Part shown: positions 6,164-59,654 of the stretch, one piece after another
Layout of the letters: the number at the start of each line of letters is the position of its first letter
Position numbering within the stretch: the stretch's first letter is position 1
Origin: Rhizophagus irregularis
Taxonomy: Eukaryota
Assembly (NCBI RefSeq): GCF_026210795.1
Contig: NC_089430.1
Location: 5,580,001 to 5,644,000 of the forward strand
Length of the DNA stretch: 64,000 nt
Reading direction: 5' to 3'
Program-made: the position numbers and the translations under genes
Notes under the pieces: generated by a model
The model's input: only the letters and a program-made list of their open reading frames with translations
Told to the model about the DNA's origin: nothing
Database searches by the model: none

Positions 6164-6481
6164 AAAAAAACTTCTAATGCCAACTTTTCGCAAAAACTCT
6201 TCCTGTGCCACTAAAAGTCCCTTTAAATTGTTGCATCATTCAATATTTGCATAATTTCATTTTTTTTTGTTGATCATTAAAATTTCATAAAATATTGCAA
6301 AAAAATAAAAAAATTGTAAAAAAAACGTTTCAGCGTTTTTTCATATAATATTATTAAAAAAAATGCCAAAAACTTTTTTTTTGCATTACTATTAAGAAAA
6401 AAACGTTTTAGCATTTTTCCATATAAAATTATAAAAAAAATAACACAAAAATGTTTTTTCTTCATTTTTTATTTTTTTAAC

Positions 6482-7440
6482 AAAAAATGTCAAGACTGAC
6501 GTCGTTTTTAATTAAAAAAAACCAATATTTTTTTGATTTTTAATCACAAAAACGTCAAGTCTGACGTTTTTAACTAAAAAAATCAATTTTTTTGATTTTT
6601 AATTACAAAATTGTCAAATCTAACGTAAAAAATAATTTTTTGAATCATAAAAATGTCAAATCTGACGTTTTTAATTAAAAAATCATTTTTTTTAATTTTT
6701 AATCACAAAAATGTCATGTCTGACGTTTTTAACTAAAAAAATCATTTTTTTTTTGATTTTTTAATTAAAAAACGTCAAGTCTGACGTTTTTTAACTAAAA
6801 AAGTCATTTTTTTGATTTTTTAATTACAAAAACGTCAAGTCTGACGTTTTTTAACTAAAAAAGTCATTTTTTTGATTTTTTAATTACAAAAACGTCAAGT
6901 CTGACGTTTTTTAACTAAAAAAGTCATTTTTTTGATTTTTTAATTACAAAAACGTCAAGTCTGACGTTTTATAACTAAAAAAGTCATTTTTTTGATTTTT
7001 TAATTACAAAAATGTCAAGTCTGACGTTTTTTAACTAAAAAAGTCATTTTTTTGATTTTTTAATTACAAAAATGTCAAATCTGACGTTTTTAATTAAAAA
7101 AATCATTTTTTTTATTTTTAATCACAAAAATGTCATGTCTGACGTTTTTTAACTAAAAAAGTCATTTTTTTTTTATTTTTTAATTACAAAAACGTCAAGT
7201 CTGACGTTTTTTAACTGAAAAAGTCATTTTTTTTTATTTTTTAATTACAAAAACGTCAAGTCTGACGTTTTTTAACTGAAAAAGTCATTTTTTTTTTATT
7301 TTTTAATTACAAAAACGTCAAGCCAGACGTTTTTTAACTAAAAAAGTCATTTTTTTGTTTATTTAATTACAAAAACGTCAAGTCTGACGTTTTTAATAAA
7401 AAAATCAATTTTTTTTATATTTAATTATAAAAACGTTTGA
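6482..7440. repeat. Tandem array of about 16 ~60-bp monomers, each made of two hairpins
   Basis: Consensus AAAAACGTCAAGTCTGACGTTTTTTAACTAAAAAAGTCATTTTTTTGATTTTTTAATTAC; near-identical copies at 6768-7067. Confidence 0.95.
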
Positions 7441-14110: not shown

Positions 14111-15960
14111 GGATATTATAAATAAATGATTTGTTAGTAGTATAAAAATGCGCATTCTGTCATGGTTTTCTCAATTTTATCTTAATCTTATTAATTAATT
14201 TTATTCTTAGTATTTGATTCAGTTTTTTTTTTCTAATAATTTCAGATTTTTAAAAATTTATTTTATGGTATTTTTTTTTTACTTTATTTAATAATTTTCT
14301 TTAATTTGGTATTTTTGATTTCATTTTTAACTTTAATTTTAGCATTTTTTTTTTAATGTTAATATTTTTTTAATTTTATTAAAAATTTTTTATAAATTTC
14401 ATATTATATAATTATATAATATACATATGTATTTTAAACATATAATATGCATTAAGAAAAGTTTTTAAAATAAAGCTAACTATAAAAAAAGTATATAGCA
14501 AATGTATTTTTATTTATTTTAAAATTTATTTCCCTTTTTTTTGATTAGTGAAACTTAAAGACAAGTTTCTGGCAGTATAAAAATAATATTAACAATACTT
14601 CGCTATTGTATTTTATTACCTGGTTAAAAGATTTATTATAAATCGTCTGTATATCTGCAAATTAATTAAATTAATTCTAAATTGTAGAATTTATTATGCC
14701 AGAAAATGTCTAAAAAAGGCAGTAATTTCTGGCTGACATCATCTATCATATTAAGGAAAGATGTTGTATTTTTTAAGTTCGAAGTTTACTCTTGTACAAA
14801 ATAAATTCTCTTATTTATTGTTGTAGTTTATTCTTAAAAGCTACCATTACAATACTTCAATTTGTGTGAATTTATGTGAATTTTTTGATACCAAAAATAA
14901 ATCACATTGAAAGTAAACCTCTTATAAGCTCCTGAAAACAAAGAAAAATTATAAAAATCTGTATCCTTTGAATGAAATTATCTGTCGTAACTACATTAGA
15001 GGCGGAAAGTTTCAAAGGGTTGAAATAAATCAAAAGAAATAACTTCTCAAATGTATTCTTTATCAAAAGTATTATGATTGGTAACGCTAAAAATTTTAAA
15101 TAATATTTTAACTGTTATAATTTCTATGATGATAATATTAATACGACTTTATTAAGTTTATTTAATAGCATCATTCCTTATTGATCTATAAATTATAATT
15201 ACCCTTCATTCTTCTTTTATTTGATCGGTTTGTCTTATTTAAAAAATTTAATTGATTAAATTGGGTAGAAAAATTAACTTTATGCGAAAGACTATATACA
15301 CGTATGTTTATTAACATATAAGATCACGCGTAATTTGAAATTTTGTGCTACATCAAAAGATAAAGGTTTATGGAAAGCAACACGTCGATCATTAAACCAA
15401 AAATTTAGCTAAAGGATTTCTCTGACAAAACTTTTTTTCTAACAATTTTACAACACTTAAAAACTAAATATTTGAACTCCTCGACATGTTTTACATGTAA
15501 AATGAGTAGAAACACCCGTTCTAAATCAAAGACTATGTCAAAAAACGCAGAAGCTGATATAATAGCAGGCTCATTTGCTACCAACGACTCTACTTCATAA
15601 GATACTACTGTTCAAAGACCTAATAAAATCAGAGCTACCCAAGCCACAAACCTATGGATAAAATAGATAATGGGTGCATTTACAAATTCATTTAGATCGG
15701 ATTGAGCCGACGCCTCAATCCAACCCATATTTACAAATTACAAAATCGATTTGGATCGAATTGAGTTGATCAACCTGACTCATTTAGATCGGATTTTACT
15801 ATTAAATTTCCAATCCAGGGTGTACCCCACGATTAAACATACCAGTACTACTATCCACCAACCTACCACCACATGTTACCCCCTATGACCCACCTATATA
15901 ATTTTTTTTGATGAAAAATTTTTTTTTCATATTAAATTTTCTTTCATATTTCGTTTAATA

Positions 15961-17048
15961 ATGGAAACAACCCTTCATGACCGTGAAAATTTTACTAAGG
16001 CGGACATTAAAAACAATAAAAAAAAATCATGCCAATGGAACGATGATAATATTAAGCTTTTACTTTCATTTTTAATAGAACGGAAAGAAGAAGTAAACCA
16101 ACTAAGTACCAAACGAGGTGGCAGCGGTAATACAAAAGCAAAGCTTTGGCAAGACGCGTCAAATATATTTCTTGACAGTCATTGCCAATATTCTGCTGAA
16201 CAGTGCGCGGTTAAGTGGAAAAACATTAAAAAAAAATATAAGGTACTACTTAAGAAACTACTTTTTAAAAATTCTTATTCACACCTTTAATTAAAAAATA
16301 TTCTATTTAGGATGACATGGATCATAATAAAAAATCAGGTAATGATTTAATTGAAGTAAAATATAAAGCAGAAGTTGAAGAAATCCTTGATGGAAATCGT
16401 CCAAGTTTAACTCCAAAACTACTAGAAAGTAGTTTGGACCAAAATGATGAAGTTATTATTGAAAAGGAAGCTCTATTTAATGAAATTACTGGTCGAAGTA
16501 AACGAAAGAACAGGTCTGATGAATCTATCCAAGAAGATGAACCGCGAAAAGCTAACAGGTCCGAAGTAAGAAAAGTTAAAAATATGTTGGAAGATCTAAT
16601 TTATCAAAGAAAGGAAGAACAAGAAAATAGAAAAATAGAACGAGAAAGAAGAGAAGTTGAACGAAAGGAAAGGGAAGAGCGAAGGCAACAGGAGTTTAGT
16701 TTACTAATTTCTGCTTTGAATTCTACAAATAGAAATATGATGTTTTCTCAAAATGATGGTATGTAATTTATTAATATAATTACAAATTATCTTTAATATC
16801 TTTAATATACTAATTATTTTATAATAGTTCCTTTTTATTATCAATCTAGTTCATTTAATACAATGCAATTCATGGATACTTCGTATACTGATACTCCACA
16901 AATTAATCGTACTCATACTCCACAAATTAATCGTACTCATACTTCGCAAATTGATCGTACACGTACTTCGCAAATTGATCGTACACGTACTCCACAAATT
17001 GATCGTACACGTACTCCACAAATTGATCCTACTTTGCAATTTGAATGA
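15961..17048 (+). CDS. Harbinger Myb/SANT-like DNA-binding protein; exons 15961-16242, 16311-16758, 16828-17048
   Basis: Trihelix Trp pattern (QWNDD..LWQDA..CAVKWKNIK), coiled coil; GT-AG introns keep the frame across three ORF-track fragments. Confidence 0.88.
16892..17028 (+). repeat. 24-bp coding tandem repeat x6 (T[P/S]QI[N/D]RT[H/R])
   Basis: ACTCCACAAATTGATCGTACACGT variants in the last Myb-gene exon. Confidence 0.9.
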
Positions 17049-17183
17049 ACTCTACATTACATATTTTCTCACCTCAAGATTTAGATGAAATTTAATCTGT
17101 TGTAATTGTAAAAAAATATAACCAAAATAAAGTCAATTATTCAAAAAAAAAATTGAAATTTTTTTTATTCTGGTGTTTATCAT

Positions 17184-18532
17184 TTATTCTGATACTTCAA
17201 TATCAATTTCATCTTCACTATCACTAATAATGTTATATCTGCTTCTTCTGTTATCTCGTAAAATTTTTTTATTCCACAAATAATTTGCTAAATTATCTCT
17301 AATGGTGTTGGTTACTTCAGAAGCATTATTATTATTTGATAAGGTGTGAAAATTATTTTGGTCATCAAAATATTCATCATCATCTAACATATCTTCCTCC
17401 CTTTCTTCACAGATATTATGTAAAATACAAGATGTTGTTACAATCAGAATAGCTGTTTCTAATGATGTTGCTATAGGATTAATGAGGCATCTAAATCTTG
17501 ATTTCAATTTTCCAAAAGCTTGTTCAACACTTATCCGAGTTTGAGAATGTTTGGTATTATAATAAGTTTGTATTTGTGTTAACCTTCCATTATCACGGTA
17601 TGGTGTAAGTAACCAATTTTGGCAAGGATAACCAGCATCACCAAGAATGTACGAATTTGAAGGAATAACAGAAGAAGAAGAACTAAGCATATAATATAAT
17701 GGAGAATTATGAAATATTCTACTATCATGAGTTGAGCCAGGATAACCAACAAAAATATCAATAAATCTTCCATATGAATCAACAACTGCTTGTAAAACAA
17801 TTGAATAAAAACCCTTTCTATTATAATAATCCATAGGATATTCTTTAGGAGCTTTAATTGGTATATGACTACCATCAATAGCTCCTATGGCATATGGGAT
17901 ACCAGCTTTTCTTTTAAATTTCTTTGCAATATTACTAAATTCAGTATAGTTATTGGGAAATCTATTAAAAATCATAATAATTAATATTTATTTATTAATT
18001 CATTAAAACTTTAATTACTACTAAACTCTTACCTAATTTTTGATGAGAGAAAATGACATTTAATTGCATATAAGACTGATCTGATAATAAAACATATAGT
18101 TGTTTCTCCTAATGCAAACAATTGTCCAAGTGTCCTATAGCTTTGACCAGTAGCTAAAAACCATAAAGTTACTGAAACTTTCTGTTTAATTGGAAGTCTT
18201 GGAGCGCCTCTTGAGTTGTTTCTTTGCAATAATATAGGTGCTATCTCAGTACACAACCACTCAAATGTAGTTTTTGTTATTCTAAAATGGCGCTTAAACT
18301 CCATATTTTCCCAACTGCTACATATATTATTAAACCAACAAAAGCTTCGGGCTCTTCTTGCTTGCCTGTGAACTGCTCTTAAAGAATTATTCCTTTCAAT
18401 AACGTCTATACACTCATAATAAAATAGTAAATCATTATTCTCATCAGATGTTTCTTCGGAGGATGAATCAGTTTGGTCCAAAAAAATTAAATATATAATT
18501 GAAACAAACAAAGAATGTCTTTGAATATTCAT
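17184..18532 (-). CDS. Harbinger DDE transposase (HARBI1-like); exons 18532-18033, 17961-17184
   Basis: FKRHFRITK, GAIDGSHIPI, THDSRIF, LGDAGY, VEQAFGKLKSRF; intron 17962-18032 joins the exons in frame (KIR/FPNN). Confidence 0.94.
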
Positions 18533-20009
18533 TATTATTCAACTTTTAGGTCTAAACTAAAATGTGTTAAGGTGGTATACGAAAATTCAAAATCCGACGC
18601 TCGTATTTGTAAACACAGATTGGATTTTATAAGAATCTGGTTTAATCCAAATGGATCGGCAATCCGATCTAAATCCGATCTAAATGAATTTGTAAATGCA
18701 CCCAATATATTTCCTTTTCACGCTATGGATATAGACGAAAACGCTTTGCCTCCTCACGCACTATCCTATATTTCATCACGTGATACACTAAATCGGGATA
18801 TCCAAATCTAACAAAGAAAAAACGACCCATGTCACAAAATAGAAGAACAAGAACTAGAAAAAGCTTCTCTAATTTTGTATATTCAAATCCGTTTACTGGC
18901 CAATTTCGCAATTATAACAATTGCATGGATCTGATGTTTATTATTTTTTCTTCATCCGATTTCCTTCACAGTGGAACTTTTTTTTACCATACAGATTTTA
19001 GTTTATCTTCTGATGTTCACAATTCTAATTTTAATAATCATCATGTAGCTTTTAATGTATAGTCACCTAGTAGTACAATTTCATCACCCACCGATCTCCT
19101 CATATATACCACTCCTATTTAGACTTGGTTGGAGTCCTAGATAGTTCTTTTTTTTACCAGTAAGGGTCTGTTCTAGTAGACTTAGGTTTGCTGTTGTGGG
19201 CGAAGTTTATAATGCTTTCCAGTTTATTCGTTAGAATAGTTTTGTGATTTTCATTGTATTACTCCTCGCTATCCATAAAATAAAATAAATAAAGGTTTAT
19301 TCTGATAATCTTTTTTTACGTTTCTTTTTTAGCGTTAGGTTTCTGCTTAGTGGAACGAACTGAAATGGTGAGTATTTTTTTTCTAATTGACTTTCAAAGA
19401 AATGTTTTTAACATTTCATTTCTTATTCTTTTTCAGTAACATCAAATTTCTTAGACACCGAATTTTTAGAGGTAAATTGGGAAGATGAAGTTTTTTATTT
19501 TTGACTTTAAAGAAATGTTTCTAACGTTTCATTCCATATTTTTTTTCTAGGGCGCTAGCTAGGTTACTACTTGTACACACTGGACTTTTAAAGGTAAATT
19601 GAGAAGGGATGTTGTAAAGTTTTATTTTATTTTGTTTATTTGACGTTTTATTCCTTATTCTTAACTCTAAAAAACATGTGATTTAGAATTTAACTGCATT
19701 TTAAATACAAAATTTTTTGCTCTGGACTTACAACGGTTTCTGTTTGCGTTTCCTATTTTTTTTTTAAAAAAAAGGAGATTGGTTTTAACCAAATTTATAA
19801 AAAAAAAAAAGTTTGCATGAGCGTTACTAAATTAAAATGAAATTAATGTTTCATAAATAAATTTATTTTGACATACCGTATCTAGTGATTTTTTATCAAT
19901 TTTCAATAAACAATTCGTTCATATTTTTTATTCATTAGAATAATAATAATATATTTTAACTTAAATGTGAAAACTTTAAAATGAAATTAAAATCCTTTTG
20001 TTTTTTGTA

Positions 20010-26693: not shown

Positions 26694-27071
26694 TTTATTT
26701 ATTTTTTACTAAAAATAGAAATGATTAGTTAATAAAAATATTTTATAGACAAAAAAAAATAAATTGACAAGATATTTAATGTTCAAAAACAAATTTTGTT
26801 TTAAAAATAAATGATTGACAAATAATTGATTAAAATTTCAGCCCACATTATAATCATGATGATTGACCAGCAATACACATCTTATATATCATTGACACTT
26901 GACAGAACAGATATTTATTATAGTATTAGCTTTATAACTTTATAAGCATAAGTATCTATGTATATAACACTAGTCGAAAAAGGAATATTCGGCCTTAATA
27001 CAATTTGGCCTATATTCGACTAGAATTAATAAAATTCGACTTCAATTAGTAAAGATTTACGATTAGACATA

Positions 27072-27594
27072 CACAGTGAAATTCGATAAACCGGATATTT
27101 GATAAACCGGATTTAGGCCTAAACCGGACTTTTTTGCTGGAACCAAATCACGTATATTAAAATAGGCTCGATATACCGGAGTTTACTAGTAAAAGCTCGA
27201 TATTCGCTATAACGGATCAATTTTCTAACCAGCTATAGTAAAAATGATTCGATGAACCGGATCACGTGACTTGTAACCAATAAAATTTAAGTAACGTGAT
27301 TCGGTAAATCTTAAATTTGGCCGGAATTATAAAAATCTTAATTCCGGCTGAAGTTAAGTATTACTTATATATTCAATTAAAATATTTTATATTCATTTTC
27401 ATGACCTCTATAACTTAAAACTAGATGAAAAAATCAAATTATAGTGTATATTAGTTTTATTAGCATGAAAATTTTTTAAAAATTCAATACAATAGATTTT
27501 CAATATATCGAAATTTTTTCGCTAAACCGGATATCCCGATAAACCGGATATTTTTAGTGGAACCGATAGATCCGGTTTATCGAATTTTACTGTG
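27072..27594. mobile_element. Tc1/mariner-type MITE nested in the CACTA
   Basis: ~25-bp TIR CACAGT[G/A]AAATTCGATAAACCGGAT flanked by TA; internal TAAACCGGA repeats. Confidence 0.85.
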
Positions 27595-27862
27595 TATATT
27601 CAACCTAGTTGAATTATGTTAATCAAACGTTATGCGTTACACGATACGCGTATTAAAATAAAAGTTTAAAAAAGGATGATCCTTTTTTAAACTTTTTTAA
27701 TTTTCTTCCTTCCCTCCTCGCCCTTTCCCTTCCTTCGTTCCCCTTTTCCTTCGTCCCAGTTTCTCTTCTTCCCCTTTCCCTCCTTTCGTTCTCCTTTCCC
27801 TTCCTTCGCTTTTCCCTTCCTTACCCTTTCCCCTTTTCTTTCGTCACTTATCTCCTTCGAAG

Positions 27863-29806
27863 GTATACATATACCTTCGAATTTTTACTTTTTTTAACGA
27901 AATGTTTCACTAACGTTTTCGTTTTTTCTTTTTTAGATTCAAGACGCCCATTTAAAAGGGTCGGGTGGGCTTTCGAAGTATGGAAAAACCAAGTTTCGTA
28001 AGTACGAAACTTGGTTTATTTATTTATTTGTTTAATTTAGTATGAATGGTTACTAACCGTTCTTTTATTACTTTTTTTTAGATTCGGCCATTCGGGTGGG
28101 CTTCCGAAGTATGGAAAAACCAAGTTTCATAAGTACAAAACTTGGTTTATTTATTTATTTTTTTTTTTAATTTAGTATGAACGGTTACTAACCGTTCTTT
28201 TATTACTTTTTTTTAGATTCGGCTGTTCGGGTGGGCTTTCGAAGTATGGAAAAACCAAGTTTCGTAAGTACGAAACTTGGTTTATTATTTTTTTTTTAAT
28301 TTAATATGAACGGTTACTAACCGTTCTTTTTTTACTTTTTTTTTAGGTTCGGCCATTCGGGTGGGCTTCCGTGTTCCGAAGAACGGGAAAATTCCAAAGA
28401 TTCGTAAGAATCTTGGATTTTTTTTTTATTTTTTAAAAAAATATTATAAACGGTTACTAATAACCGTTCTTTTCTATTTTTTAGGATCGGGTGGCTTCCG
28501 AAGAACGAAAACCCAAAGATTCGTACAAATCTTCAATCTTTTTTATTTTTGATTATTACGAATGGTTTACTAACCATTCTTTCTTTTTTTTTATAGGTTC
28601 GGGTGGGCTTCCGAAGAACGAAAACCCAAAGATTCGTATGAATCTTCAATATTTTTTATTTTTGATTATTATGAATGGTTTACTAACCATTCTTTCTTTT
28701 TTTATAGGTTTGGGTGGGCTTCTGAAGAATGAAAACCCAAAGATTCGTAAGTACGAATCTTCAATCTTTTTTTATTTTTGATTATTACGAATGGTTTACT
28801 AACCATTCTTTCTTTTTTTTATAGGTTTGTGAGCTTCCAAGGATCGGGAAAAGGAGAACTGAGGTTCGTTACAAACCTTGGATTTTTTTTTAATATTATG
28901 AACGGTTTCTAACCGTTCTTTTTCTTTTATTTTTATAGGTTCGGTTGGCTTCTGAAACCAAGATTCATAAGTACGAGTACGAATCTTGATTTTTGTTTTT
29001 TTTTATTATTTTGGAACAGTTTACTAACCGTTCCTTTCTTTTTTTTATAGGTTCGTCCGTTTGGGTGAGTTTCCGAAGAACGAAGAATGGAAAAAACTAA
29101 GATTCGTAAGTATTCCGTATTACGAATCTTAGTTTTTTTTTCTTTTTTTATTCTTATTATTATGAACGGTTACTAACTGTTCTTATTCTTTTTTTATAGG
29201 TTTCGGTGGGCTTCTAAAGAACGAAAAAGAACTAAGATTTGTAAGTATTACGAATCTTAGTAGTTCTTTTTTTTAAAAAAAAGAAACGTTATACTGTATT
29301 AACGTTTCTATTTCTTTATTTTGTAGGAACTCCGGGGCTTTCTTTCTCTCTTCCCTCTCACCTTCCCTCTCCTCTTTCGTTATTCCCCACCATTCCTCTA
29401 TCTCTTACTTTTGTAGGATATTTTCTTGGAATTTTCTTCAGCTTCAGTAGATTTCTTTAGTAGAACGTGTAGATCAACGTCTTTGAATTGGTAAGTTTTT
29501 TTTTTTATTATTAATTTTGATTTTTTTTTATTGATTTTTTTTATCTTATAATTTGTAGAAATCAACAGTTTCGCACTTTCCGGATCGAATTGGTAAGTTT
29601 TCACTTAAAAACTTTTTTTAAAAATTTTTTTTTTATTATTAATTAATTTTTTTATTATCTTATTTTGTAGTTTCGGCTTCCTTATCCTGGATGATAGGAT
29701 CGATTAGTAAGTTTCAAAACGGTTTGTTTTGAAACTTTTTTTTTAAAGTTTTGTTTTTCCAAATTTTTATTTCAAATCGGACTTGGACTTTATTTTTTTT
29801 CTTTAG
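27863..29806 (+). repeat. Tandem array of micro-exon + intron units (~110-140 bp period), putative multi-spliced non-coding transcript
   Basis: Repeated GTAAGT / TACTAAC / (Y)nTAG signals separated by 28-61 nt GC-richer exon-like units (TTCGGGTGGGCTTCCGAAG). Confidence 0.8.
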
Positions 29807-30543
29807 TTATAGTAAGACGACTTTTAACATTCGTTCTTTTCAAGATGCGATCATGTGATTGTGAAATTGTGTATAATTATTTTATTTATACATTAGATAG
29901 ATGCTAATATACATGTACTGTATATTTAAGTGTTTTAATAAATTAATAAATTTGAAATTGAACTAAATTAATAAATAAATATTGAGACAAAATTTTGTGT
30001 CGAATAATCATCCGAACTGCACCTCAATTTGACGCCACTATTAGACCTAAATTCAACCTAAATTCAACCTAAATTCAACCTAGTCAAATTTAGGTCGAAT
30101 GGTAGTGTAGTGATGGCCGAATTTTCTTTCCAAATTTGAGACGATTGGCACCCTAAATGCGCCCAAAAATTCGACCTCAATTTGACACAGGTTAGATCAT
30201 CATTCGACCTATATTCAACCTGGTCAAATTTAGGCCAAATTGTCTTTTTTCGACTAGTGTAATAATGAACATATAATGTTATAGCTCAAAAAGTTTCACC
30301 AATTTTCTTAATATTCGTTGTTATTTAAAAAAATTCACACATGTTTAAATTGAATATGATCAGCAAATAATTTTTATAAAAAAATTCAGCCCACATTACA
30401 CAAATCACTAATTAGTCATGATCAACATAATTATGCATAAATATTGTTCTTCCATTTATAAAGCATCAGGCGAAATTTTTTTTCTTACCACTGCAAATTT
30501 TTTTTTAATTTCTTCCTATGAATTTTATTTGAAAAAACTCTCA

Positions 30544-39441: not shown

Positions 39442-40267
39442 TAATAATAGTAATCTATTTATATACGAATATTCTTTCGTATTCAAACAGAAACTTTTAC
39501 GAACCAATTTGTTAAAAGATATGTATAAAGCTCAAAAAAAAAAATTTCATTTAATATCAAAATTGTTAAATTTAAATTCAATATTTGCAGAACAACAACA
39601 ATATAGCAATGGAACGTAAATTTGTCATTTATTGTATGTAAATTGGTCATTTGCTTGTCATTTTTTTAAATAAAACTGGGATAATAATATAATGTAAATC
39701 AGATACTTATTTGAATATTAACTGATCGAAACTAGTACAAATTGTTTAATTTTCGTACAACTTTATACATACAAAAAATGTGCCAAATGAGCTAAATTTG
39801 AGAATGAATATTATATGGATTTTTTTGTTGATTATATATTGGATAAATTTCGGATGGAAATTTTTCATAGAGGCAATTTATATTTTTAAATATTTTAAAC
39901 AATATAAATGTAAATTTTTGTAATAATACTTTTGATAAATTAGCAGAATATTCTTATTTCATATAACACATTTTGAAAAGATTCCAATATGTTGTTGTAA
40001 TGATTATGGTAGGGATCATTTATTCATTTTATTTAAATAACGTCAACCTTTATAACGAATAAAAAATTTGATTTTTATCAAGAAGAGATTTATATATATA
40101 CTCTGTAAATAATTATGTGACTTATGTACTTTTAATATATTCTTTCTACGGTACGACATTTATTAATAATATTGTAATAATTTATAGTAATATTTTTTTT
40201 CAAAATTTATTGATGACGTCTTATATAAGTGAAAATTACACTAACCCAGTGGCATCGACAAAATTTA

Positions 40268-43200
40268 AACTACCCCAGTGGCACCGACAAAAATTTAGCG
40301 ATCACGTGATTTTTCTCTGTCACATGACATTTTATCATCACATCGTAAATTTGTAATACGTTAATTACTGATTGTCACTAATTACTAATAAATGATAACG
40401 CAACCGTAACACTTAGAAAAAAAGGGGGGGGGGGGTTTTTTATAACAACTTAGAAAAAAAAGGAAGTTTTTTTTATAACGACTTACAAAAAAAAATAAAC
40501 TTCCTTTTTTTTTCTCTGACAATTATAAAAGAACAAGGTAATATAATAAATGAATTTTTTAAATTTGTTTTTCGCATTTTTTTAAGAAAAACTTAACGTA
40601 TTTATTTTATAGGAACAGCATACATTAATTATGAGAAGAAAAAAAACATTCTAAACGAAAGTATGTACAATACATACATTACTCATAAAACATAGTATTA
40701 TTATTATGTTCTTTCCAAGTTTTTGGATTGGTAATTCTATTATTATATCTATTAATATCATTAACTATCTTTCTAACACCTTCTATATTTTTATTAATAG
40801 ACTTTGCCCATCGAATGTTTGATAATGCATGTTGTTCCCGAATGATTTGCAGTGCCCTTTCTAACGTATTTTCAATCTCAACAAAAATCTCTGTTGATTC
40901 TTCTTCTTGAAAATTATCTATAATTAAATTTAATTTAGTTAGTTAATTGTATCTATTTATCATTTTTTATTTAATAAATCTTATACCTAAAGAATTAGAT
41001 ACTCTTGTAGTTCCAGTCGTGATATAATCTATATTATTTTGATTTAAAGGGAAATCATGAGCCTTCATTCCAAGCAAAGGATAAACTCCTTGCCGTTGTA
41101 CTTCCTTAAAAAATTTGGGTGAAATATTTTCTTTTACAATATTAATCAAATGTTTACAAATAAAAAATCTATTTGTTAAAAAATATGGACAGCTACATAT
41201 CCATTTTTCTGAATCAGTTAAATAATTAGATGTTTGTGAAGGTTTTCTTTTGGATAATTCTTTCCAATTATGTTTGAAATCCTTTCTCCAAGAAGGTTCT
41301 TGTCTACCCATAAGATATTTATTTAACGTTGCTTCATTATGTGGAATAAGGCGGGTAATTGTGATATAAGTTACTAGATCAAGGCGAGGGCGGAAGAATT
41401 TTGGTAAATAATCTCTCTTGATAACCTTCCAGTGGGATTCTGTGAGCATTGTAGTTTTAAAAACGCAGATCTTTTCAGGTGAAGCAGAACGAGCCCAAAG
41501 AATCCACATATCATCTTGATACCAGTTAGTCCATAGATAAGCCCATAAATGAATTAAATTATGTTTATAACATAATAAATACATTTCCTTAACTGCACTT
41601 TCTTGAATGGTTTGAAATGATAAAAATTCATTTTGGGAAAAAGGGATGAGAGGATGTTGATGATAATGTTTAACAAACAAATCCAATACTTCAGAACGCA
41701 AATTTTTAGGACAAAAGGCAACATTATTTAAAGAATTAGTAGTTGTTGATGATACAAATGAAAGAATCCATTGTCTATCTATGAAATCATATTGTTGATT
41801 AGAATTAAGTAAAGAATGATGACTAAAATTTTTGAGTTCATTATCTGATAATTTTTTTTTAAGAGCTCTTTTAGCATGCCATAGACAAATTTGAATTTTT
41901 GCATCTGGCCAAGTAGATTGAGCTGCATTAATTTGTGAAAAGTCTTTATCAGTAAGAAAATATTCAATATTTTTTAATCCAATTTTTTTCAATTCTTGAA
42001 AAAAATTAGTTAAAATAGATGTTCTAATTCCATTGTTTTTTTTTGCATTATCTAGAAAAAGATATGCCGCTGAAAATCCAGCTCCATCTATTTGTCCAAT
42101 GATGGCATATAATTCATATTTGAGTGCATTTGTTTTATCTATAAAATTAGTAAACATATCAAATATATTAAATAAATATGAATGCCAAATACAGATGCTA
42201 GATATAAAATATTTCAAACTATACTTACAAGTAGCATCAACTAATATTTCATTATTATTGATTAATTTCTGAAATGGTGGTGTAATAAAACCTATGTATT
42301 TGACGTCCCCATTCAAATCCATGAATATTATGTTATAATCATTTTCATTTAATAATAAATGAGTTGAAATTAATTGGTTTTGATTTCTTTCATACTTTTT
42401 TTTCATTAATTTAGTCCACCAATAATGTATTTGCTTTTGAGTAATATTTGGATTTCTTAATTCTAGTTGTCCAAATATTTCTGCTGGTGAAAGATGTATT
42501 TGGGAATTAATAAATTTTGTTATCTATTCGTCAATTAGATACCTTTCTGGCCTCTTATGAAGTATACTATGCGTGGCGTTGATCGTTGCCTGTTGATCAT
42601 TAGTATTGATTATGATTTTGATTGCGCTATCACAATCAAACCTTTCTATTGGTATTTTATCTCTATTTTTCTCCTCATTTACATTTTTTCTAGGTCTTTT
42701 TGCTAAAGATCTGTCTTGAGAACATTTATACCAATAAGTATAAATTTTGTCATCTTTCTTTGAATGATACTCTTTGCTATAACTATATAGATATAAAAAA
42801 TAAGTTAATTACAAATAATAAATAATTAACTGTTAACATAAAAGCCATTTAAAAGAAACTAGTACTCACATATAATAATATCCATCCACCTCGCCAATAA
42901 AATTCTTTACGTTGTCTGCCATTTCTTTTGGTGTTTTATTTGATAGAAAAGAAATATCAATAATACAAGAAAATTCTATTCCAGATTCACAATTTTCTAA
43001 ATATTCCTCTTTCCCAATATCATTAATCATCTCAGATAAGCGTTGATCTAATTCTTTATAACTAAGAATCAAAAAATTTTCGTCTGGAATCAAAATATTT
43101 TTGTCTGTTTTTTTTCTTTTACTATTATATTCATTATTTTGTTTTCTACAAGTAATACATCGTTTATAGAAGTTACCTTTTTGATTATTAATAAAAAGGG

Positions 43201-43457
43201 ACTGATCAAAAGATTTATAACACTTTACACAAGTAATCAATGTCATTTTATTTTATTTTATTGGAAAAAAGTGAAGAAAGAGAAAAAAAAAGAAATTGTT
43301 ACGCGTATTACATATTTATTATTATGATCCAATAATTAGTGAAATCATTTGTCACAGTAGTCACGTATTACAAATTTACGATGTGATGATAAAATGTGAT
43401 GTGACAGAGAAAAAATCACGTGATCGCTAAATTTTTGTCGGTGCCACTGGGGTAGTT
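40268..43457. mobile_element. Mutator-like element (MULE)
   Basis: ~94-bp near-perfect TIRs starting AACTACCCCAGTGGCACCGAC; 9-bp TSD CAAAATTTA at 40259-40267 and 43458-43466. Confidence 0.95.
40679..43246 (-). pseudogene. MULE transposase with SWIM finger and one nonsense codon; exons 43246-42870, 42782-42229, 42138-40987, 40917-40679
   Basis: Spliced DATYKTN, LTDKD, CLWH, TESHW, CSCPYFLTNRFFICKH; in-frame TAG at 42524-42526. Confidence 0.88.
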
Positions 43458-43696
43458 CAAAATTTACTGCATACTGCGGTGCCAAAGTTGAGCATCGACT
43501 GATTGATTGGTAACAGGTAATACAGGTAATACTAAATGACGCTGTACGCTTGTACGACTATCATCGGAGAAAAAAAAGTATAAAATAGGTATACACAATA
43601 AAACTTTAATAATTTTTACTTTTTCACTTTTTCCTTAACTTTATTGTTATCATTATTCAATAATCAATACATTTGATAACGCTCAATAATATCAAA

Positions 43697-49353: not shown

Positions 49354-52300
49354 ATGGAAACTGTATTTAACAAATTAAATATCTCGGATAAATATACTGA
49401 TACAATAGGTACCAAAAATTGCTCATATTGCAATATACCTTTTACTGATGAAGAATTGTGGTGTAAGGAATGTATTAATTCTTTAGAAAAATTAGCAGAA
49501 AATGGTGATAAAGAAGCAATGTTTAATTTAGCCAACTGTTATAAGAATGAAAAAGGTATGGAAAAGAATTTAGAAAAAGCCTTTAATTGTTATCAAAAGG
49601 CAGCAGAAAAAAATCATGTTGATGCAATGTTTGGTTTAGTTGCATGTTATAGAAAAGGAGTAGGAACAGAAAAAAATTTTGAAAAAGCATTTCATTGGTG
49701 TCAAAAAGCAGCAGAAAGAGATCATATTGATGCAATTTATCGTTTAGCTGCATTTTATAGAAATGGAATAGGAACAGAAAAGAATTTAGAAAAAGCATTT
49801 CATTGGTGTCAAAAAGCAGCAGAAAAAAATCATATTGATGCAATGTTTGGTTTAGCAATATGCTATGAAAATGGAGAAGGAATAGGAAAGAATTTAGAAA
49901 AAGCCTTTAATTGTTATCAAAAAGCAGCAATAAAGGATCATATTGATGCAATGTTTAGTTTAGCTAACCACTATTATATTGGAGTAGGAACAGAAAAGAA
50001 TTTTGAAAAAGCATTTAATTGGTGTCAAAAAGCAGAAAAAGATCATATTGATGCCATTTATTGTTTAGCTGCATTTTATAGAAATGGAATAGGAACAGAA
50101 AAGAATTTAGAAAAAGCCTTTCATTGGTTTCAAAAAGCAGCAGAAAAAAATCATATTAATGCAATATTTGGCTTAGCAATATGCTATGAAAATGGAGAAG
50201 GAATAGGAAAGAATTTAGAAAAAGCCTTTAATTGTTATCAAAAAGCAGCAATAAAGGATCATATTGATGCAATGTTTAGTTTAGCTAACCACTATTATAT
50301 TGGAGTAGGAACAGAAAAGAATTTTGAAAAAGCATTTAATTGGTGTCAAAAAGCAGCAGAAAAAGATCATATTGATGCCATTTATTGTTTAGCTGCATTT
50401 TATAGAAATGGAATAGGAACAGAAAAGAATTTAGAAAAAGCCTTTCATTGGTTTCAAAAAGCAGCAGAAAAAAATCATATTAATGCAATATTTGGCTTAG
50501 CAATATGCTATGAAAATGGAGAAGGAACAGGAAAGAATTTAGAAAAAGCCTTTGATTGTTATCAAAAAGCAGCAGAAAATGATCATATTGATGCAATGAT
50601 TGGTTTAGCTGTATGTTATGGGAATGGAGAAGGAACAGAAAAAAATTTAGAAAAAGCATATCATTGGTATCAAAAAGCAGCAGAAAAAGATTATATTGAT
50701 GCAATGTATGGTTTAGCTACATTTTATAGAAATGGAGTAGGAACAGAAAAGAATTTTGAAAAAGCCTTTCATTGGTTTCAAAAAGCAGCAGAAAAAGATC
50801 ATATTGATGCAATATTTAGTTTAGCTAATCACTATTATAATGGAGAAGGAACAGAAAAGAATTTAGAAAAAGCATTTCATTGGTATCAAAAAGCAGCAAA
50901 AAAAGACCATATTGTTGCAATGTATAGCTTAGCTGCATTTTATAGAAATGGAGTAGGAACAGAAAAGAATTTAGAAAAAGCCTTTTATTGGTTTCAGAAA
51001 GCAGCAGAAAAAAATCATATTAATGCAATGTTTGGCTTAGCAATGTGCTATGAAAATGGAGAAGGAACAGAAAAAAATTTAGAAAAAACCTTTCAGTGGT
51101 GTCAAAAAGCAGCAGAAAAAGATCATATTAATGCAATGTTTAGTTTAGCTAATCACTATTATAATGGAGTAGGAATAGAAAAGAATTTAGAAAAAGCCTT
51201 TTATTGGTTTCAAAAAGCAGCAGAAAATGATCATATTGATGCAATGATTGGTTTAGCTGCATGTTATGGGAATGGAGAAGAAACAGAAAAGAATTTTGAA
51301 AAAGCGTTTCATTGGTGTCAAAAAGCAGCAGAGAAAGACCATATTATCGCAATGTATTGTTTAGCTATATTTTATAGAAATGGAGTAGGAACAGAAAAGA
51401 ATTTAGAAAAAGCATTTCATTGGTTTCAAAAAGCAGCAGAAAAAGATCATATTGATGCAATATATAGTTTAGCTACATTTTATAGAAATGGAGTAGGAAC
51501 AGAAAAGAATTTAGAAAAAGCATTTCATTGGTTTCAAAAAGCAGCAGAAAAAGATCATATTGATGCAATATATAGTTTAGCTACATTTTATAGAAATGGA
51601 GTAGGAACAGAAAAGTATTTAGAAAAAGCCTTTCATTGGTGTCAAAAAGCAGCAGAAAAAGATCATATTGATGCAATGTTTAGTTTAGCTAATCACTATT
51701 ATAATGGAGAAGGAACAGAAAAGAATTTAGAAAAAGCCTTTCAGTGGTGTCAAAAAGCAGCAGAAAAAGATCATATTAATGCAATGTTTAGTTTAGCTAA
51801 TCACTATTATAATGGAGTAGGAATAGAAAAGAATTTAGAAAAAGCCTTTTATTGGTTTCAAAAAGCAGCAGAAAATGATCATATTGATGCAATGATTGGT
51901 TTAGCTGCATGTTATGGGAATGGAGAAGAAACAGAAAAGAATTTTGAAAAAGCGTTTCATTGGTGTCAAAAAGCAGCAGAGAAAGACCATATTATCGCAA
52001 TGTATTGTTTAGCTATATTTTATAGAAATGGAGTAGGAACAGAAAAGAATTTAGAAAAAGCATTTCATTGGTTTCAAAAAGCAGCAGAAAAAGATCATAT
52101 TGATGCAATATATAGTTTAGCTACATTTTATAGAAATGGAGTAGGAACAGAAAAGAATTTAGAAAAAGCATTTCATTGGTTTCAAAAAGCAGCAGAAAAA
52201 GATCATATTGATGCAATATATAGTTTAGCTACATTTTATAGAAATGGAGTAGGAACAGAAAAGTATTTAGAAAAAGCCTTTCATTGGTGTCAAAAAGCAG

Positions 52301-54982
52301 CAGAAAAAGATCATATTGATGCAATGTTTAGTTTAGCTAATCACTATTATAATGGAGAAGGAACAGAAAAGAATTTAGAAAAAGCCTTTCATTGGTGTCA
52401 AAAAGCAGCAAAAAAAGATCATATTGATGCAATGTTTAGTTTAGCTAATTTCTATTATAATGGAGAAGGAACAGAAAAGAATTTTGAAAAAGTTATTCAT
52501 TGGTATCACAAAGCAGCAGAAAAAGATCATATTTTTGCAATGATTGGTTTAGTCAATCACTATTATGATAAAGAAGGAACAGAAAAGAATTTAGAAAAAG
52601 CCTTTCATTGGTGTCAAAAAGCAGCAGAAAAAGACTATGATATTGCAATTTATTGTTTAGCTACATTTTATAGAAATGGAGTAGGAACAGAAAAGAATTT
52701 TGAAAAAGCATTTCATTGGTGTCAAAAAGCAGCAGAAAAAGATCATATTGATGCAATGTTTGCTTTAGCTAATCACTATTATAATGGAGTAGGAACAGAA
52801 AAAAATTTAGAAAAAGCATTTCATTGGTGTCAAAAAGCAGCAGAAAATGATAATATTGATGCAATGTTTAGTTTGGCCAATTACTATTATAATGGAGTAG
52901 GAACAGAAAAGAATTTAGAAAAAGCCTTTCATTGGTGTCAAAAAGCAGCGGAAAGAGATTATATTAATGCAATGTCTATTTTAGCTAATCACTATGGTAA
53001 TGGAGAAGGAACAGAAAAGAATTTAGCAAAGGCCTTTCATTGGTATCAAAAGGCAGCAGAAAAAGGTCATATTGATGCAATGATTGGTTTAGCTGCATGT
53101 TATGGGAATGGAGAAGGAACAGAAAAAAATTTAGAAAAAGCCTTTCATTGGTATCAAAAAGCAGCAGAAAAAGATCATATTATTGCAATGTTTGGTTTAG
53201 CCAATTACTATGAAAATGGAAAAGGAACAGAAAGGAATTTAGAAAAAGCCTTTCATTGGTATCAAAAAGCAGCAGAAAAAGGTCATATTGATGCAATGAT
53301 TGGTTTAGCTGCATGTTATGGGAATGGAGAAGGAACAGAAAAAAATTTAGAAAAAGCCTTTCATTGGTATCAAAAAGCAGCAGAAAAAGATTATATTGAT
53401 GCAATGTATGGTTTAGCTGCACTTTATAGAAATGGAATAGGAACAGAAAAGAATTTAAATAAAGCCTTTCATTGGTATCAAAAAGCAGCAGAAAAAGGTC
53501 ATATTAATGCAATATTTAATTTAGCTGCATGCTATAGAAATGGAGAAGGAACAGAAAGGAATCTAGAAAGGGCCTTTTATTGGCATCAAATTGTAGTAGA
53601 AAGTAACAAAACCAATCCTAAAAATAAAGTTGAATTTTGTAATGAATGCAAGCTACCGAACTCTGATTATCAATGGTGTCAACAATGTAATACTAAACGA
53701 TTTCAACAAGATTTTTCAAAGTGGACTAGTAACAATAAATTTATTGATGAATTTATCCAAGAAGCACAGTCAAATGCTAAAAATAGTTATGAAATTTTAG
53801 AGTGGATACCTTATAATAATTTATCAAGTATTGATTATTATGATAGAGGAGGATTTAGTGAAATTCATAAAGCTATCTGGTTAGATGGACCTATTTTTAG
53901 TTGGAATTCTGGCAAACAACAATGGAATAGACAAACATGTTATGTGGTTATCCTTAAAATACTTAATAATTCATCAAGTTTAAATAATGAATTTCTGGAT
54001 GAGGTATAGTATTTATACTATTTAATAGCAAATTTTATTTCTTGTGCAAAAATTTAATGATTTTTTTTTGTTGTTTATATAGTGGAAATATCATTATAAT
54101 TGTCAGAAAAAATCATTTTCGAAACTTATTCAGTTCTTTGGTATTACCCAAGATCCAAATAATTTAAATTATATAATAGTAATGAGTTATGCAAAAAATG
54201 GAAGTTTAAGAAAATGTTTATCTGATATAATTAAATTCAAATGGCAAGATAAGTTACAATTATTGAAAAAAATTATATTAGGGCTTAAAGTAATTCATGA
54301 ATCAAATTTAATTCATGGTGATTTTCATGATGGTAATATTTTAATGTCAGATAATTACAATGAATTATTTATTATTGATTTAGGATTATGCAAACCTACA
54401 AGTGTTTTACAAAATTCCGGTAATAAAGTTAATGAAATTTATGGAGTTTTACCTTATATGGCGCCTGAAATATTAAGAAAAAAACCTTATACTCCAGCAA
54501 GTGATATTTATAGCTTTTCAATGATAATGTGGGAATTAACATCCGGCATTCCTCCATTTAACCATGAAGCACATGATCATCACTTTATCTTGAGTGTTTA
54601 TGAAGGGAAACGTCCTAAAATTATGGAAAATACTCCAAAATGTTATATAGATTTAATGAAAAAATGTTGGGATTTAAATCCTTCCAATAGACCAACCATA
54701 ATAATGCTTGAAAATATTATATCTGAATGGGTTGGATGTATTAATAAATATTATGAAATAAACAAGAATGGAAATTATAAATTTTTAGTGCCTAATATTG
54801 ATAATCAATTAAAAAATGATTTGATAGAATTTATAGAAGCAAATGAATCTTTAATGCAAAATCAAGCAAATACTTCTATTATCCAATATCATCCACAAGC
54901 ATGTTATACAAGCCGCAAACTTACTGAAATTTTAGTTCAAGAAGAGTCTCAGGGTTTTGATTGTAAGATTGAAGATGATTAG
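49354..54982 (+). CDS. Sel1-repeat (~38 x 36 aa) protein kinase; exons 49354-54003, 54083-54982
   Basis: 108-bp tandem repeats, CxxC motifs, GGFSEIH, VILK, HGDFHDGN, DLG, LPYMAPE; phase-0 intron 54004-54082. Confidence 0.94.
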
Positions 54983-58081: not shown

Positions 58082-59377
58082 TAGAGGTTAGAACCGGAAT
58101 CGGTTATCGGATTTATAACCGGGTTTAACCGATTTGAAATTTAACCGGTTTACGATTCGGTTAACCGGTTATATTCAAACCGGTTTAAACCGATTAACCG
58201 GTTATTTCAAACCGATCAAAACCGATTTTTAATTTTTGTGAATGGTGACATGCCTCCACCTGATCTATTTATCCCCAATCAACTAATACAATTTCAGTTA
58301 ATGAAATTTTAGAATTTTTTTTTTGATTAATAATTTTAAATTTTTCGTTTTTTTTTTCAAACTGAAAAAAAAATTTTCTTCCTTTCTTCTTTCGGTTTAG
58401 TTTTTTTTCAAACCGAAAAATTTGTTTTTTCTCATTCTTTTCCCGTTTAGGTTTAATTTTTTTTCCCAAACTGAAAAATATTTTTTTTTTTGAATTATTG
58501 TCCTTTTTTTTCAGAATTTTTTTCGGTACTTATTTTTTTTTAGATTCCTTTTTTTTTGGAAATTTCCCTTTTTTTGAACCGATTCCTTTCTTTATCCTTT
58601 TTCTTTCCCCCAAATTATTTTTAATTTTTTTTTCTTTCAATTTTTTTTATAACATGTAGGAAAGATGATTAAGATTTTCAAGTTTGATTTTCAAATTCAT
58701 AAAAATCAAAAAAAATTGATATTTTTACAATATTTTACAATTAATTAATTAAAGAAATTATTGATTTAATAATAGACTATTGTAACCAAATCCATATTCG
58801 AAATTCTCTAAATAATCACCAGATTTTTGAATAAAAATTTTAATTCAAATGGTTTAGTTAAATTGATAATTTATTGAATAAAATGAGTATCAAAAGAATA
58901 ATAATAAATGAAATGAACAGATTTCTAATATATTTGATTGTTCAAATATTTTTCCTAAGTTGATTATAAGTTTAAAATTGACGTAATATAAAATAATAAG
59001 AAATAATTATAAAATTTATAATTAATTAATAAAATATTTGAAACTTTATAGTGCTGGCCCGAATTACGAAATTTAAATCACGTGACTACGGCTAAATAGT
59101 TTAGCCACCGGGTAAGTTATGTTACACAAAATTTTATTATAGATATTTGTGTCCCACAAAATTTCGAACTGTGTTACACAAGGGATGTAATTCCGGCCGG
59201 AATTATAACTTGGCAGGATTTATGCCGATCACATTTAATTCTGGCCAGAATTATCAAATATATACGAATCGGTTATTCGGTTTCAATCGGGTTTTGCGAA
59301 ATCGGTTTGAAACGGATTGAACCGGTTGCGCCCGTTTTAAATTCGGTTTTCGAAAATAGAACCGGTTCTAAACTCTA
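58082..59377. mobile_element. Non-autonomous hAT-like element
   Basis: TIR TAGAG[G/T]TTAGAACCGG; 8-bp TSD GTTGAAAC at 58074-58081 and 59378-59385; dense subterminal AACCG/CGGTT motifs. Confidence 0.92.
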
Positions 59378-59654
59378 GTTGAAACATTATTAATGTCAAT
59401 GTATGACGAAAAATTTCTTTGCCTCATCAGCCAATCAATAATGTCATTTCTTGTTATCATTTAAAAATACTAGCAATATGTTTCGTAAGTCTGATTAAAA
59501 AAAATTAATTAACCTCTGACACAAGAATATTATAATTTCAACAGTCTACCCTCACTCTCGTCTATGTTCCACAGAGAAAAAAAAAATATTTCGAGAAAAT
59601 TTAGAAAAAATTTTTATTTAAAACATGAAAAATTACATTTTAAACTTTCTAATA

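Follow-up and report, generated by a model that had tools for sequence, protein, structure and literature searches.

Within a 64-kb window of the Rhizophagus irregularis genome (i.e. the whole stretch of DNA that was analysed), a succession of very short exons and introns raises the question of what is being repeated, what carries it, and whether the hairpins that cover its splice signals act in the RNA. The first-pass annotation had read the array as a row of spliceosomal exon-intron cassettes with hairpin-masked splice signals. The reading that we favour, with moderate confidence, is that a non-autonomous CACTA-type transposon, present in multiple copies, has the array as its transcribed core, that this core gives rise to a spliced, likely non-coding RNA, and that the predicted hairpins likely brake the splicing of this RNA.

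The exon-intron units and the element that carries them

The introns of the twelve units are 71–94 nt long, with exons of 61, 47, 47, 57, 38, 39, 39, 43, 28, 55 and 41 nt between them; the coordinates and exon lengths of the first-pass annotation were all recovered in the sequence, as were the three further introns that it had placed before position 29806. The signals of U2-type spliceosomal introns are present (GT donor, branch motif, pyrimidine tract and AG): the acceptor is TAG in 12 of 12 introns, each with a branch-like motif 21–26 nt ahead of it. The uniformity of the units had been overstated: the GTAAGT-like donor, described for each of them, is indeed a GT in ten of the twelve introns, but it has decayed to AT in two (28129 and 28967) and is exactly GTAAGT in only five; the branch motif, described as TACTAAC throughout, reads TATTAAC in unit 12; and unit 1 has the architecture of units 2–11 but not their sequence.

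Exon and intron are repeated together as one unit, with periods of 113–135 nt (135, 129 and 113 nt in Tandem Repeats Finder), which rules out a reading of the array as introners, i.e. intron copies that multiply one at a time at unlinked sites. Tandem exon-intron units are also found in non-coding hosts such as the SNORD115/116 host and C19MC, whose long introns carry snoRNA or pre-miRNA; a host array of this type is ruled out as well, the Rfam search having returned 9 matches at E up to 1, none of them near the gathering score.

The ends around the array are those of a CACTA transposon: the termini, 5'-CACTA...TAGTG-3', are exact at 26968–26978 and 30249–30259, the terminal inverted repeat is 14 bp long and perfect, and a 3-bp TAA lies on either side (26965–26967 and 30260–30262), in agreement with the target duplication of 2–3 bp that is expected for CACTA (CMC-EnSpm) elements. 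Short subterminal repeats, among them an 11-bp repeat and inverted pairs that link both ends, complete the arrangement. A pattern scan of metagenomes returned five loci, two of which, L001 and L004, are true relatives; the other three (L002, L003 and L005) are chance prokaryotic matches and were dropped. L004 begins with the same left terminus in a different flank, followed, without the nested insertion of the window copy, by a CT-rich tract and the array; it is our one DNA-level example of dispersed copies that have a common terminus but different flanks. The 523-bp insertion, which has CACAGT ends and many short palindromes, is missing from L004 and is no part of the array unit. In L001, eight complete units and relatives of the last introns are found; among viral contigs, there are no matches. 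The carriage of the array by a non-autonomous CACTA, as first proposed, is thus borne out by the ends, the TAA duplication and the L004 copy, where an identical left CACTA end precedes the array.

Table 1. Coordinates of the element, of its parts and of the related run in the 64-kb window.
Feature	Position	Strand	Remarks
Non-autonomous CACTA-type element, 3292 bp	26968..30259	+	same left end ahead of same array in L004
523-bp inverted-repeat insertion, TA-flanked, nested in left arm	27072..27594	.	28-nt arms, 96% complementary
17-bp perfect palindrome directly upstream of transcribed part	27660..27696	.	similar palindrome in L004
CT-rich first exon, likely transcription start region	27700..27862	+	RNA depth rise
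Intron 1	27863..27936	+	11-bp stems over donor and over branch motif; differs in sequence from units 2–11
Array: 11 micro-exons and introns 2–12, with donor and branch hairpins	27937..29326	+	sequence; exon-exon joints in RNA
Introns 2–7	27998–28081, 28129–28216, 28264–28346, 28404–28484, 28523–28596, 28636–28707	+	
Introns 8–12	28747–28824, 28868–28938, 28967–29050, 29106–29199, 29241–29326	+	
164-nt exon, second CT-rich tract	29327..29490	+	sequence; read by gene models P0015, P0025, P0128
Three further predicted introns, with 34- and 36-nt exons between	29491..29806	+	used by gene models P0007, P0015, P0128
Positions of the further introns	29491–29558, 29593–29670, 29707–29806	+	without branch hairpin
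Likely terminal exon and AT-rich 3' end	29807..29990	+	RNA depth drop
Right subterminal region, short direct and inverted repeats	29996..30259	.	11-bp repeat 30045–30082; inverted pairs I2, I4, I14
Further run of micro-exon/intron units, diverged and external to the element	19330..19600	+	introns 19368–19436, 19472–19550; exons 35 and 43 nt

The CACTA-ended family is multi-copy in R. irregularis. A protein search with the open frame over two exons gave 10 matches, eight of them from R. irregularis and two metagenome proteins, while a profile of the array, with 7998 candidates scored, is matched by 245 database proteins, which are gene models built from array exons; the 120 matches listed all belong to R. 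irregularis and bear at least 11 different OCT59 locus tags of one assembly. The same species accounts for 18 of 18 longer gene models from the profile search, and for 10 of 10 divergent ones that were looked up among 126 representatives at 50% identity, one of these representatives being a false match from bacteria; no other species is named among the protein matches, in a search that covers gene models. As regards captured host genes of the Pack-CACTA kind, the array has, at the protein level, no match beyond these gene models and no Pfam family, P0007, P0014 and P0015 included. It is likely that annotators have misread the array as more than 200 protein entries. The peptide of the exon that follows intron 1 is carried by 10 of 200 models. 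A separate count, that of the "DFK exon", contains three false matches (P0013, P0023 and P0026) and is disregarded. The gene model P0007 tracks the exons of the window copy, and its last eight residues are those encoded by the right flank of the window copy, so in an annotated genome, too, this site carries an insertion. The right terminus of the element (30255–30287) provides an AG acceptor, through which P0007 splices into the flank; a kinase-like gene begins on the same strand about 285 bp downstream of this terminus (about 30545), and read-through is possible.

The window holds several other repeated or mobile structures. At 6465–7436, about 16 copies of a 60-bp unit, each palindromic, lie upstream of the 5' end of a minus-strand LINE-like element; this array does not qualify as another intron array of the kind, as there is no intron space between its donor-like and branch-like motifs. 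An apparently intact Harbinger-like element with two convergent genes (15667–18708) sits, by eye, inside a degenerate LINE-like fragment. The element at 40232–43465 has terminal inverted repeats of about 105 bp and a minus-strand transposase-like gene, and a near-duplicate of its first 29 bp is found just to its left. A 108-bp unit that looks Sel1-like by eye occurs 38 times at 49487–53590, where several copies that lie far apart are 99–100% identical over 300 bp, and at 58090–59386 an inverted-repeat element has both ends packed with AACCGGTT palindromes.

Splicing of the family RNA and its coding potential

RNA reads were taken from four runs (X21–X24), chosen by species label and representing at most three samples and two studies; the libraries are unstranded, X21–X23 being poly(A) runs of one study and X24 coming from the other. 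With placement on positions 26900–30400 at 85% likeness, 9382 reads were placed, of which only 204 are at least 99% alike to the window copy; most fall below 99%, and the splicing evidence therefore concerns the family and not the window copy. In RNA from related copies, introns are removed at the predicted borders. Our figures refer to the 15 joints listed, with 231 others beyond: eight of the 15 lead from an exon end to an exon start and account for 495 reads, while the other seven (342 reads) comprise six intron-to-intron matches between copies and one strand switch. The joint 28635 to 28597 is exact at both sides, with 107 reads in four of four runs; three further joints (67, 64 and 92 reads) are exact if the intervening letters are the start of a variant next exon; one that leaves from 28638 and has an additional letter (36 reads) agrees with a second donor located 4 nt downstream; and three of the eight are approximate, with unknown letters between. 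Among the 15 joints, in reads of which so few are close to the window copy, no GT..AG skip is seen, and there are no split reads for the last three introns (29491–29806). Split reads at the predicted junctions are thus found in related copies, and the unit behaves, at the level of the family, as the spliceosomal cassette that had been proposed; intronless DNA copies may be an alternative source of the joined form.

Many unspliced reads occur alongside the spliced ones. The mean exon/intron depth, over the 7 exon and 14 intron places that happened to be tabulated, is 201/181 in X21, 241/224 in X22, 155/114 in X23 and 57/13 in X24; the intron-to-exon ratio is about 0.7–0.9 in X21–X23 against 0.23 in X24, a difference that may reflect either condition-dependent retention or the library method. 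The libraries being unstranded, antisense or read-through RNA could also be the source of the intron depth in X21–X23. Elements with these ends are an unlikely source of carried-over DNA, since the depth in X21 is 0 over the right subterminal region against about 140 over the array. The depth climbs at about 27720 and declines at about 29940, both inside the element: per mate direction, it rises in X21 and X22 from below 3 in the bin 27602–27718 to 11–16 in the bin 27719–27835, and it falls to at most 3 beyond 29942 and, in X21, to 0 beyond 30059.

The spliced product, with 15 introns removed, is 1086 nt long and contains 12–16 stops per frame, its longest ATG frame having 87 codons; as had been noted for the exon lengths, no frame is held, only 4 of the 14 internal exons being divisible by three. 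The database gene models follow the sense strand nearly always (4308 against 16 matching 5-mers), and all three sense frames are used by 79 of 146 models in a 5-mer test and by 154 of 200 in a looser motif test (P0072, a bacterial S-layer protein and a false match, is left out of the 200-model set but is still within the 146). Three C-terminal peptides are frequent, in 27, 10 and 4 of the 200 models; by codon reasoning, they represent one terminal exon in three frames. That the exons encode real lysine/arginine-rich repeat proteins, as annotated, agrees with the number of database entries, with the preserved frame of the 39-nt exons and with the several isoforms of some models; we consider it very improbable, as the models switch frames, nearly every 90% cluster of them has only 1–3 members, and named matches stay within one species.

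Among the 18 long gene models, eight consist of the array only and ten are fused to seven different partners, which are N-terminal, in the middle or C-terminal: a reverse transcriptase with RNase H in P0011, a weakly CACTA-transposase-like ORF in P0013, P0023 and P0026, and five others. These fusions bear on a different explanation, in which a CACTA/CMC transposase gene would have the array, joined to the 3' end, for its intron-rich 5' leader, slow splicing would limit the transposase, and the window copy and most others would be internal deletions. A CT-rich start followed by short introns is the usual build of a fungal 5' leader, and the array has this build; moreover, the three models P0013, P0023 and P0026 hold the array within an ORF that resembles Mucoromycota clusters (0.93) and is weakly like Transposase_21 clusters (0.87; the family is present on 15% of the members, so that this is a lead only). 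We nevertheless regard the leader explanation as improbable: no consistent transposase ORF lies behind the array in the long models, the terminal exon described above closes many models, the RNA depth stops inside the element, and the junction peptide of P0023 matches the translated CACTA terminus, which suggests, at the protein level only, a nested insertion. The frame switching and the varied partners indicate that the RNA is likely non-coding, as first proposed, and that it probably does not serve any one gene as a fixed leader; in our estimation, it is very probable that the transposon RNA is spliced and non-coding.

Predicted hairpins over the donor and the branch point

The folding of the splice signals has been compared with dinucleotide shuffles in 24 units (12 from the window, eight from L001 and four from L004), which are related and do not amount to 24 independent trials; 16 introns from coding genes of the window, picked by eye, served as controls. 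The z value is below −2 for the donor region in 19 of the 24 units and for the branch region in 23, against 0 of 16 controls, with medians of −3.45 (donor) and −4.85 (branch) in the units and of +0.16 and +0.23 in the controls. In 19 of 24 units, against 4 of 16 controls, the branch A lies within a pair. For the donor GT, in contrast, the share with a pairing above 0.5 is not significantly different (14 of 24 units against 5 of 16 controls, p 0.11), and the term "masked donor" therefore fits the exon end more than the GT. The second of the two hairpins in the first-pass annotation, that of the branch point, is thereby confirmed, while the first stands as a stem near the donor but not as pairing of the GT itself significantly above control level. 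All units fold locally, unit 4 for example into two local stems; with two such stems per intron and no whole-intron hairpin that joins the 5' end to the 3' end, a mirtron reading is ruled out.

The covariation of the stems has been examined in an alignment of 23 units (19 pairs, 456 cells), the structure being drawn from those same related sequences. Of the cells, 87.5% are paired; 21 are altered on both sides against 6.4 in shuffles, and the covariation score is 0.160 against 0.074, a value that is reached in 0 of 500 shuffles, while slid controls attain at most 0.059. In contrast, the pairs with a double change, five in number, are in no excess (170 of 500 shuffles reach that count). Stronger evidence than these statistics is the retention of stems across unlike sequences: stems lie on the same signals, with different sequences, in unit 1, in the first intron of L004 and in two introns at 19.4–19.5 kb. 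The last two belong to the diverged run of Table 1, which has the branch-hairpin geometry of the array: a scan of both strands of the 64 kb for a branch motif in a stem, followed by a pyrimidine tract and AG, gave 12 matches, ten in the array and two at 19.4–19.5 kb, and the alignment of the 43-nt exon of this run with an L001 exon beats 2000 of 2000 shuffles. The run suggests that the design is older or wider than the CACTA element. At 19330–19830, it adjoins a degenerate LINE-like fragment, and no CACTA end is visible there.

In 20 of 26 branch stems, positions −4 to −2 are unpaired in the loop and positions −1 to +1 are paired, opening the 3' arm. According to the available text of PMC13167188, positions −4 to −2 of the branch are the U2 toehold; the loop position may simply follow from the weak self-complementarity of the branch consensus around these bases.

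A neutral DNA origin of the palindromes is the main rival to an action of the hairpins in the RNA, and we think it rather unlikely: the introns would be real and spliced, the hairpins would be DNA palindromes that arose by template switching around weakly self-complementary splice motifs, the palindromes would promote slippage and so spread the array, and the RNA would have no role. The donor consensus is indeed weakly self-complementary, like that of the branch, and template switching, which duplicates one arm onto the other, imitates compensatory change. Palindromes are also common in other non-coding repeats of the window: of its 47 strong hairpins, 17 lie in 27–30 kb, ten in 6–8 kb (nearly all of these in the 60-bp array) and four at 58 kb, and perfect palindromes that lack splice signals are present in its non-coding DNA. 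Single changes in the stems have no wobble bias, with 10 G-U against 26 A-C/C-A cells over 19 pairs, and there is no excess without the three ragged outer pairs either (9 against 13). Finally, the donor G, part of a CpG, is lost in 4 of 23 units, and other CpG guanines are lost equally often (5 of 21 in the intron arm and 5 of 21 in the exon); to this extent, the splice motifs are no better conserved than their flanks, an outcome that the first-pass annotation had counted against its own reading. R. irregularis DNA is methylated at CpG and its young transposons yield small RNAs, as stated in the available text of PMC8647823, and the single-change and CpG results are in line with inserted copies that decay neutrally while methylated at CpG. 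The inserted copies of any transposon decay neutrally, however, so symmetric single changes are compatible with selection in founder lineages; furthermore, 0 of the 16 coding-gene introns, which have the same kind of motifs, carry such stems, whereas stems cover both signals in introns of unrelated sequence. On balance, we lean towards an action of the predicted hairpins at the RNA level.

Possible role of the element and comparison with known systems

If the hairpins act in the RNA, the history and the effect of the array may be pictured as follows. One unit of exon and intron would have been amplified head to tail, through slippage or unequal exchange, and selection would have maintained its stems in the founder lineages, those that transpose, whereas copies that have inserted would decay neutrally. 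The binding of U1 and U2 would need each stem to be opened, no more than positions −4 to −2 being accessible in the branch stem; splicing would accordingly be slow and variable, with retention, skipping and use of the second donor 4 nt downstream. Unspliced RNA would retain the palindromes, which could pair between units over about 32 bp (inverted pairs between units span 32 nt and are 88–94% complementary), whereas splicing would take out one arm of each donor palindrome. The unspliced RNA would stay on spliceosomes and feed the host small-RNA pathway, restraining the family. In the SCANR pathway, stalled spliceosomes yield siRNA (PMC7175516, available text); a link of the array to small-RNA silencing, drawn by analogy with such a pathway, is tentative and rather doubtful. 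Silencing evasion, a stalled-spliceosome trigger of siRNA and a supply of structured intron RNAs, all put forward in the first-pass annotation, are putative roles. The unit motifs have 0 occurrences in the supplements of PMC6399891 (9 files), PMC8647823 (8 files) and PMC11075540 (1 file), tables that need not list all reads. In its fullest form, the proposal is that the transposon encodes a switch for splicing: the stems would control the binding of U1 and U2, with the U2 toehold trinucleotide as the only part exposed in the branch loop; retained palindromes would form Dicer-length duplexes between units and hold spliceosomes; splicing would defuse them; and the family would set or soak up spliceosome-coupled silencing according to condition, the intron depth relative to the exons being about five-fold different between the two studies. 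Taken as a whole, this switch is unlikely.

An opposite role for the same introns would be gene mimicry, in which the element would pass for a host gene through the spliceosomes that its many introns attract, and would so stay unmethylated and open to mobilisation. Plant and worm transgenes are guarded against silencing by splicing, the HUSH and Aquarius/EMB-4 studies reportedly point to the same protection of transcripts, and the family is both transcribed and multi-copy. We judge such mimicry improbable, as stems on splice signals and heavy intron coverage speak against efficient splicing, and the CpG decay, at about a quarter of the sites, suggests that the array has been methylated.

The array, read as a transposon core with braked splicing, amounts to a natural library in which dozens of short introns combine signals close to the consensus with graded stems, and whose copies can be compared; two questions thereby become testable, namely how fungal splicing is tuned by RNA structure at the donor and the branch, and whether RNAi is set off by stalled spliceosomes outside Cryptococcus. 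Even if the hairpins are neutral, two further points hold: the array is a concrete source of false orphan genes in a model mycorrhizal fungus, where they make up at least 245 database proteins and occupy at least 11 loci of one assembly, and the element accounts for part of the unclassified repeats of R. irregularis, which make up 24% of the genome in the available text of PMC8647823.

The full-text literature gave no description of this element, nor of a transposon made of tandem structured exon-intron units, and the words intron, splic and hairpin are absent from the available text of PMC8647823 and PMC11075540; repeat libraries (GitHub, Repbase) may hold the consensus as an unclassified repeat. 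Known systems share single features with the array. With the SNORD115/116 host and C19MC of mammals, it has in common head-to-tail exon-intron units that give a heavily spliced non-coding RNA, but its introns, instead of being long carriers of snoRNA or pre-miRNA, are 71–94 nt long and have no Rfam family at the gathering score, and it is mobile. In MAPT exon 10 and yeast RPL30, a local stem-loop over a splice signal likewise tunes splicing; these are single regulatory sites in host genes, while in the array a pair of donor and branch stems is repeated through a transposon. Introner-like elements and the sister stwintrons of ascomycetes also form families of near-identical, structured spliceosomal introns that multiply, as described in the available text of PMC8469720 and PMC9024468, but they are single introns that spread to unlinked sites in coding genes; the array duplicates exon and intron together in tandem, is moved inside a DNA transposon, and has local stems, one of them across the exon-intron border.

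The SCANR substrates of Cryptococcus, as far as the available text of PMC7175516 describes them, resemble the array in that they are transcribed from DNA transposons, in a fungus that has RNAi, and contain introns whose splicing is inefficient; their introns are weak by sequence or length and lie inside transposase mRNAs, whereas the array has near-consensus but folded signals, 12 repeats and a likely non-coding RNA. As a non-autonomous CACTA with internal exons, the element, whose architecture we have not found described, is nearest to Tgm-Express1, the soybean Pack-CACTA (PMC1947982, available text), in which non-autonomous CACTA ends likewise surround exons and introns, from which alternative splicing makes many products. 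Tgm-Express1, in the same text, holds five unrelated host gene fragments that are spliced within a host transcript; the element of R. irregularis, in contrast, is built from one short tandem unit without a known host source, carries stems on both splice signals, and seemingly has its own start and end.
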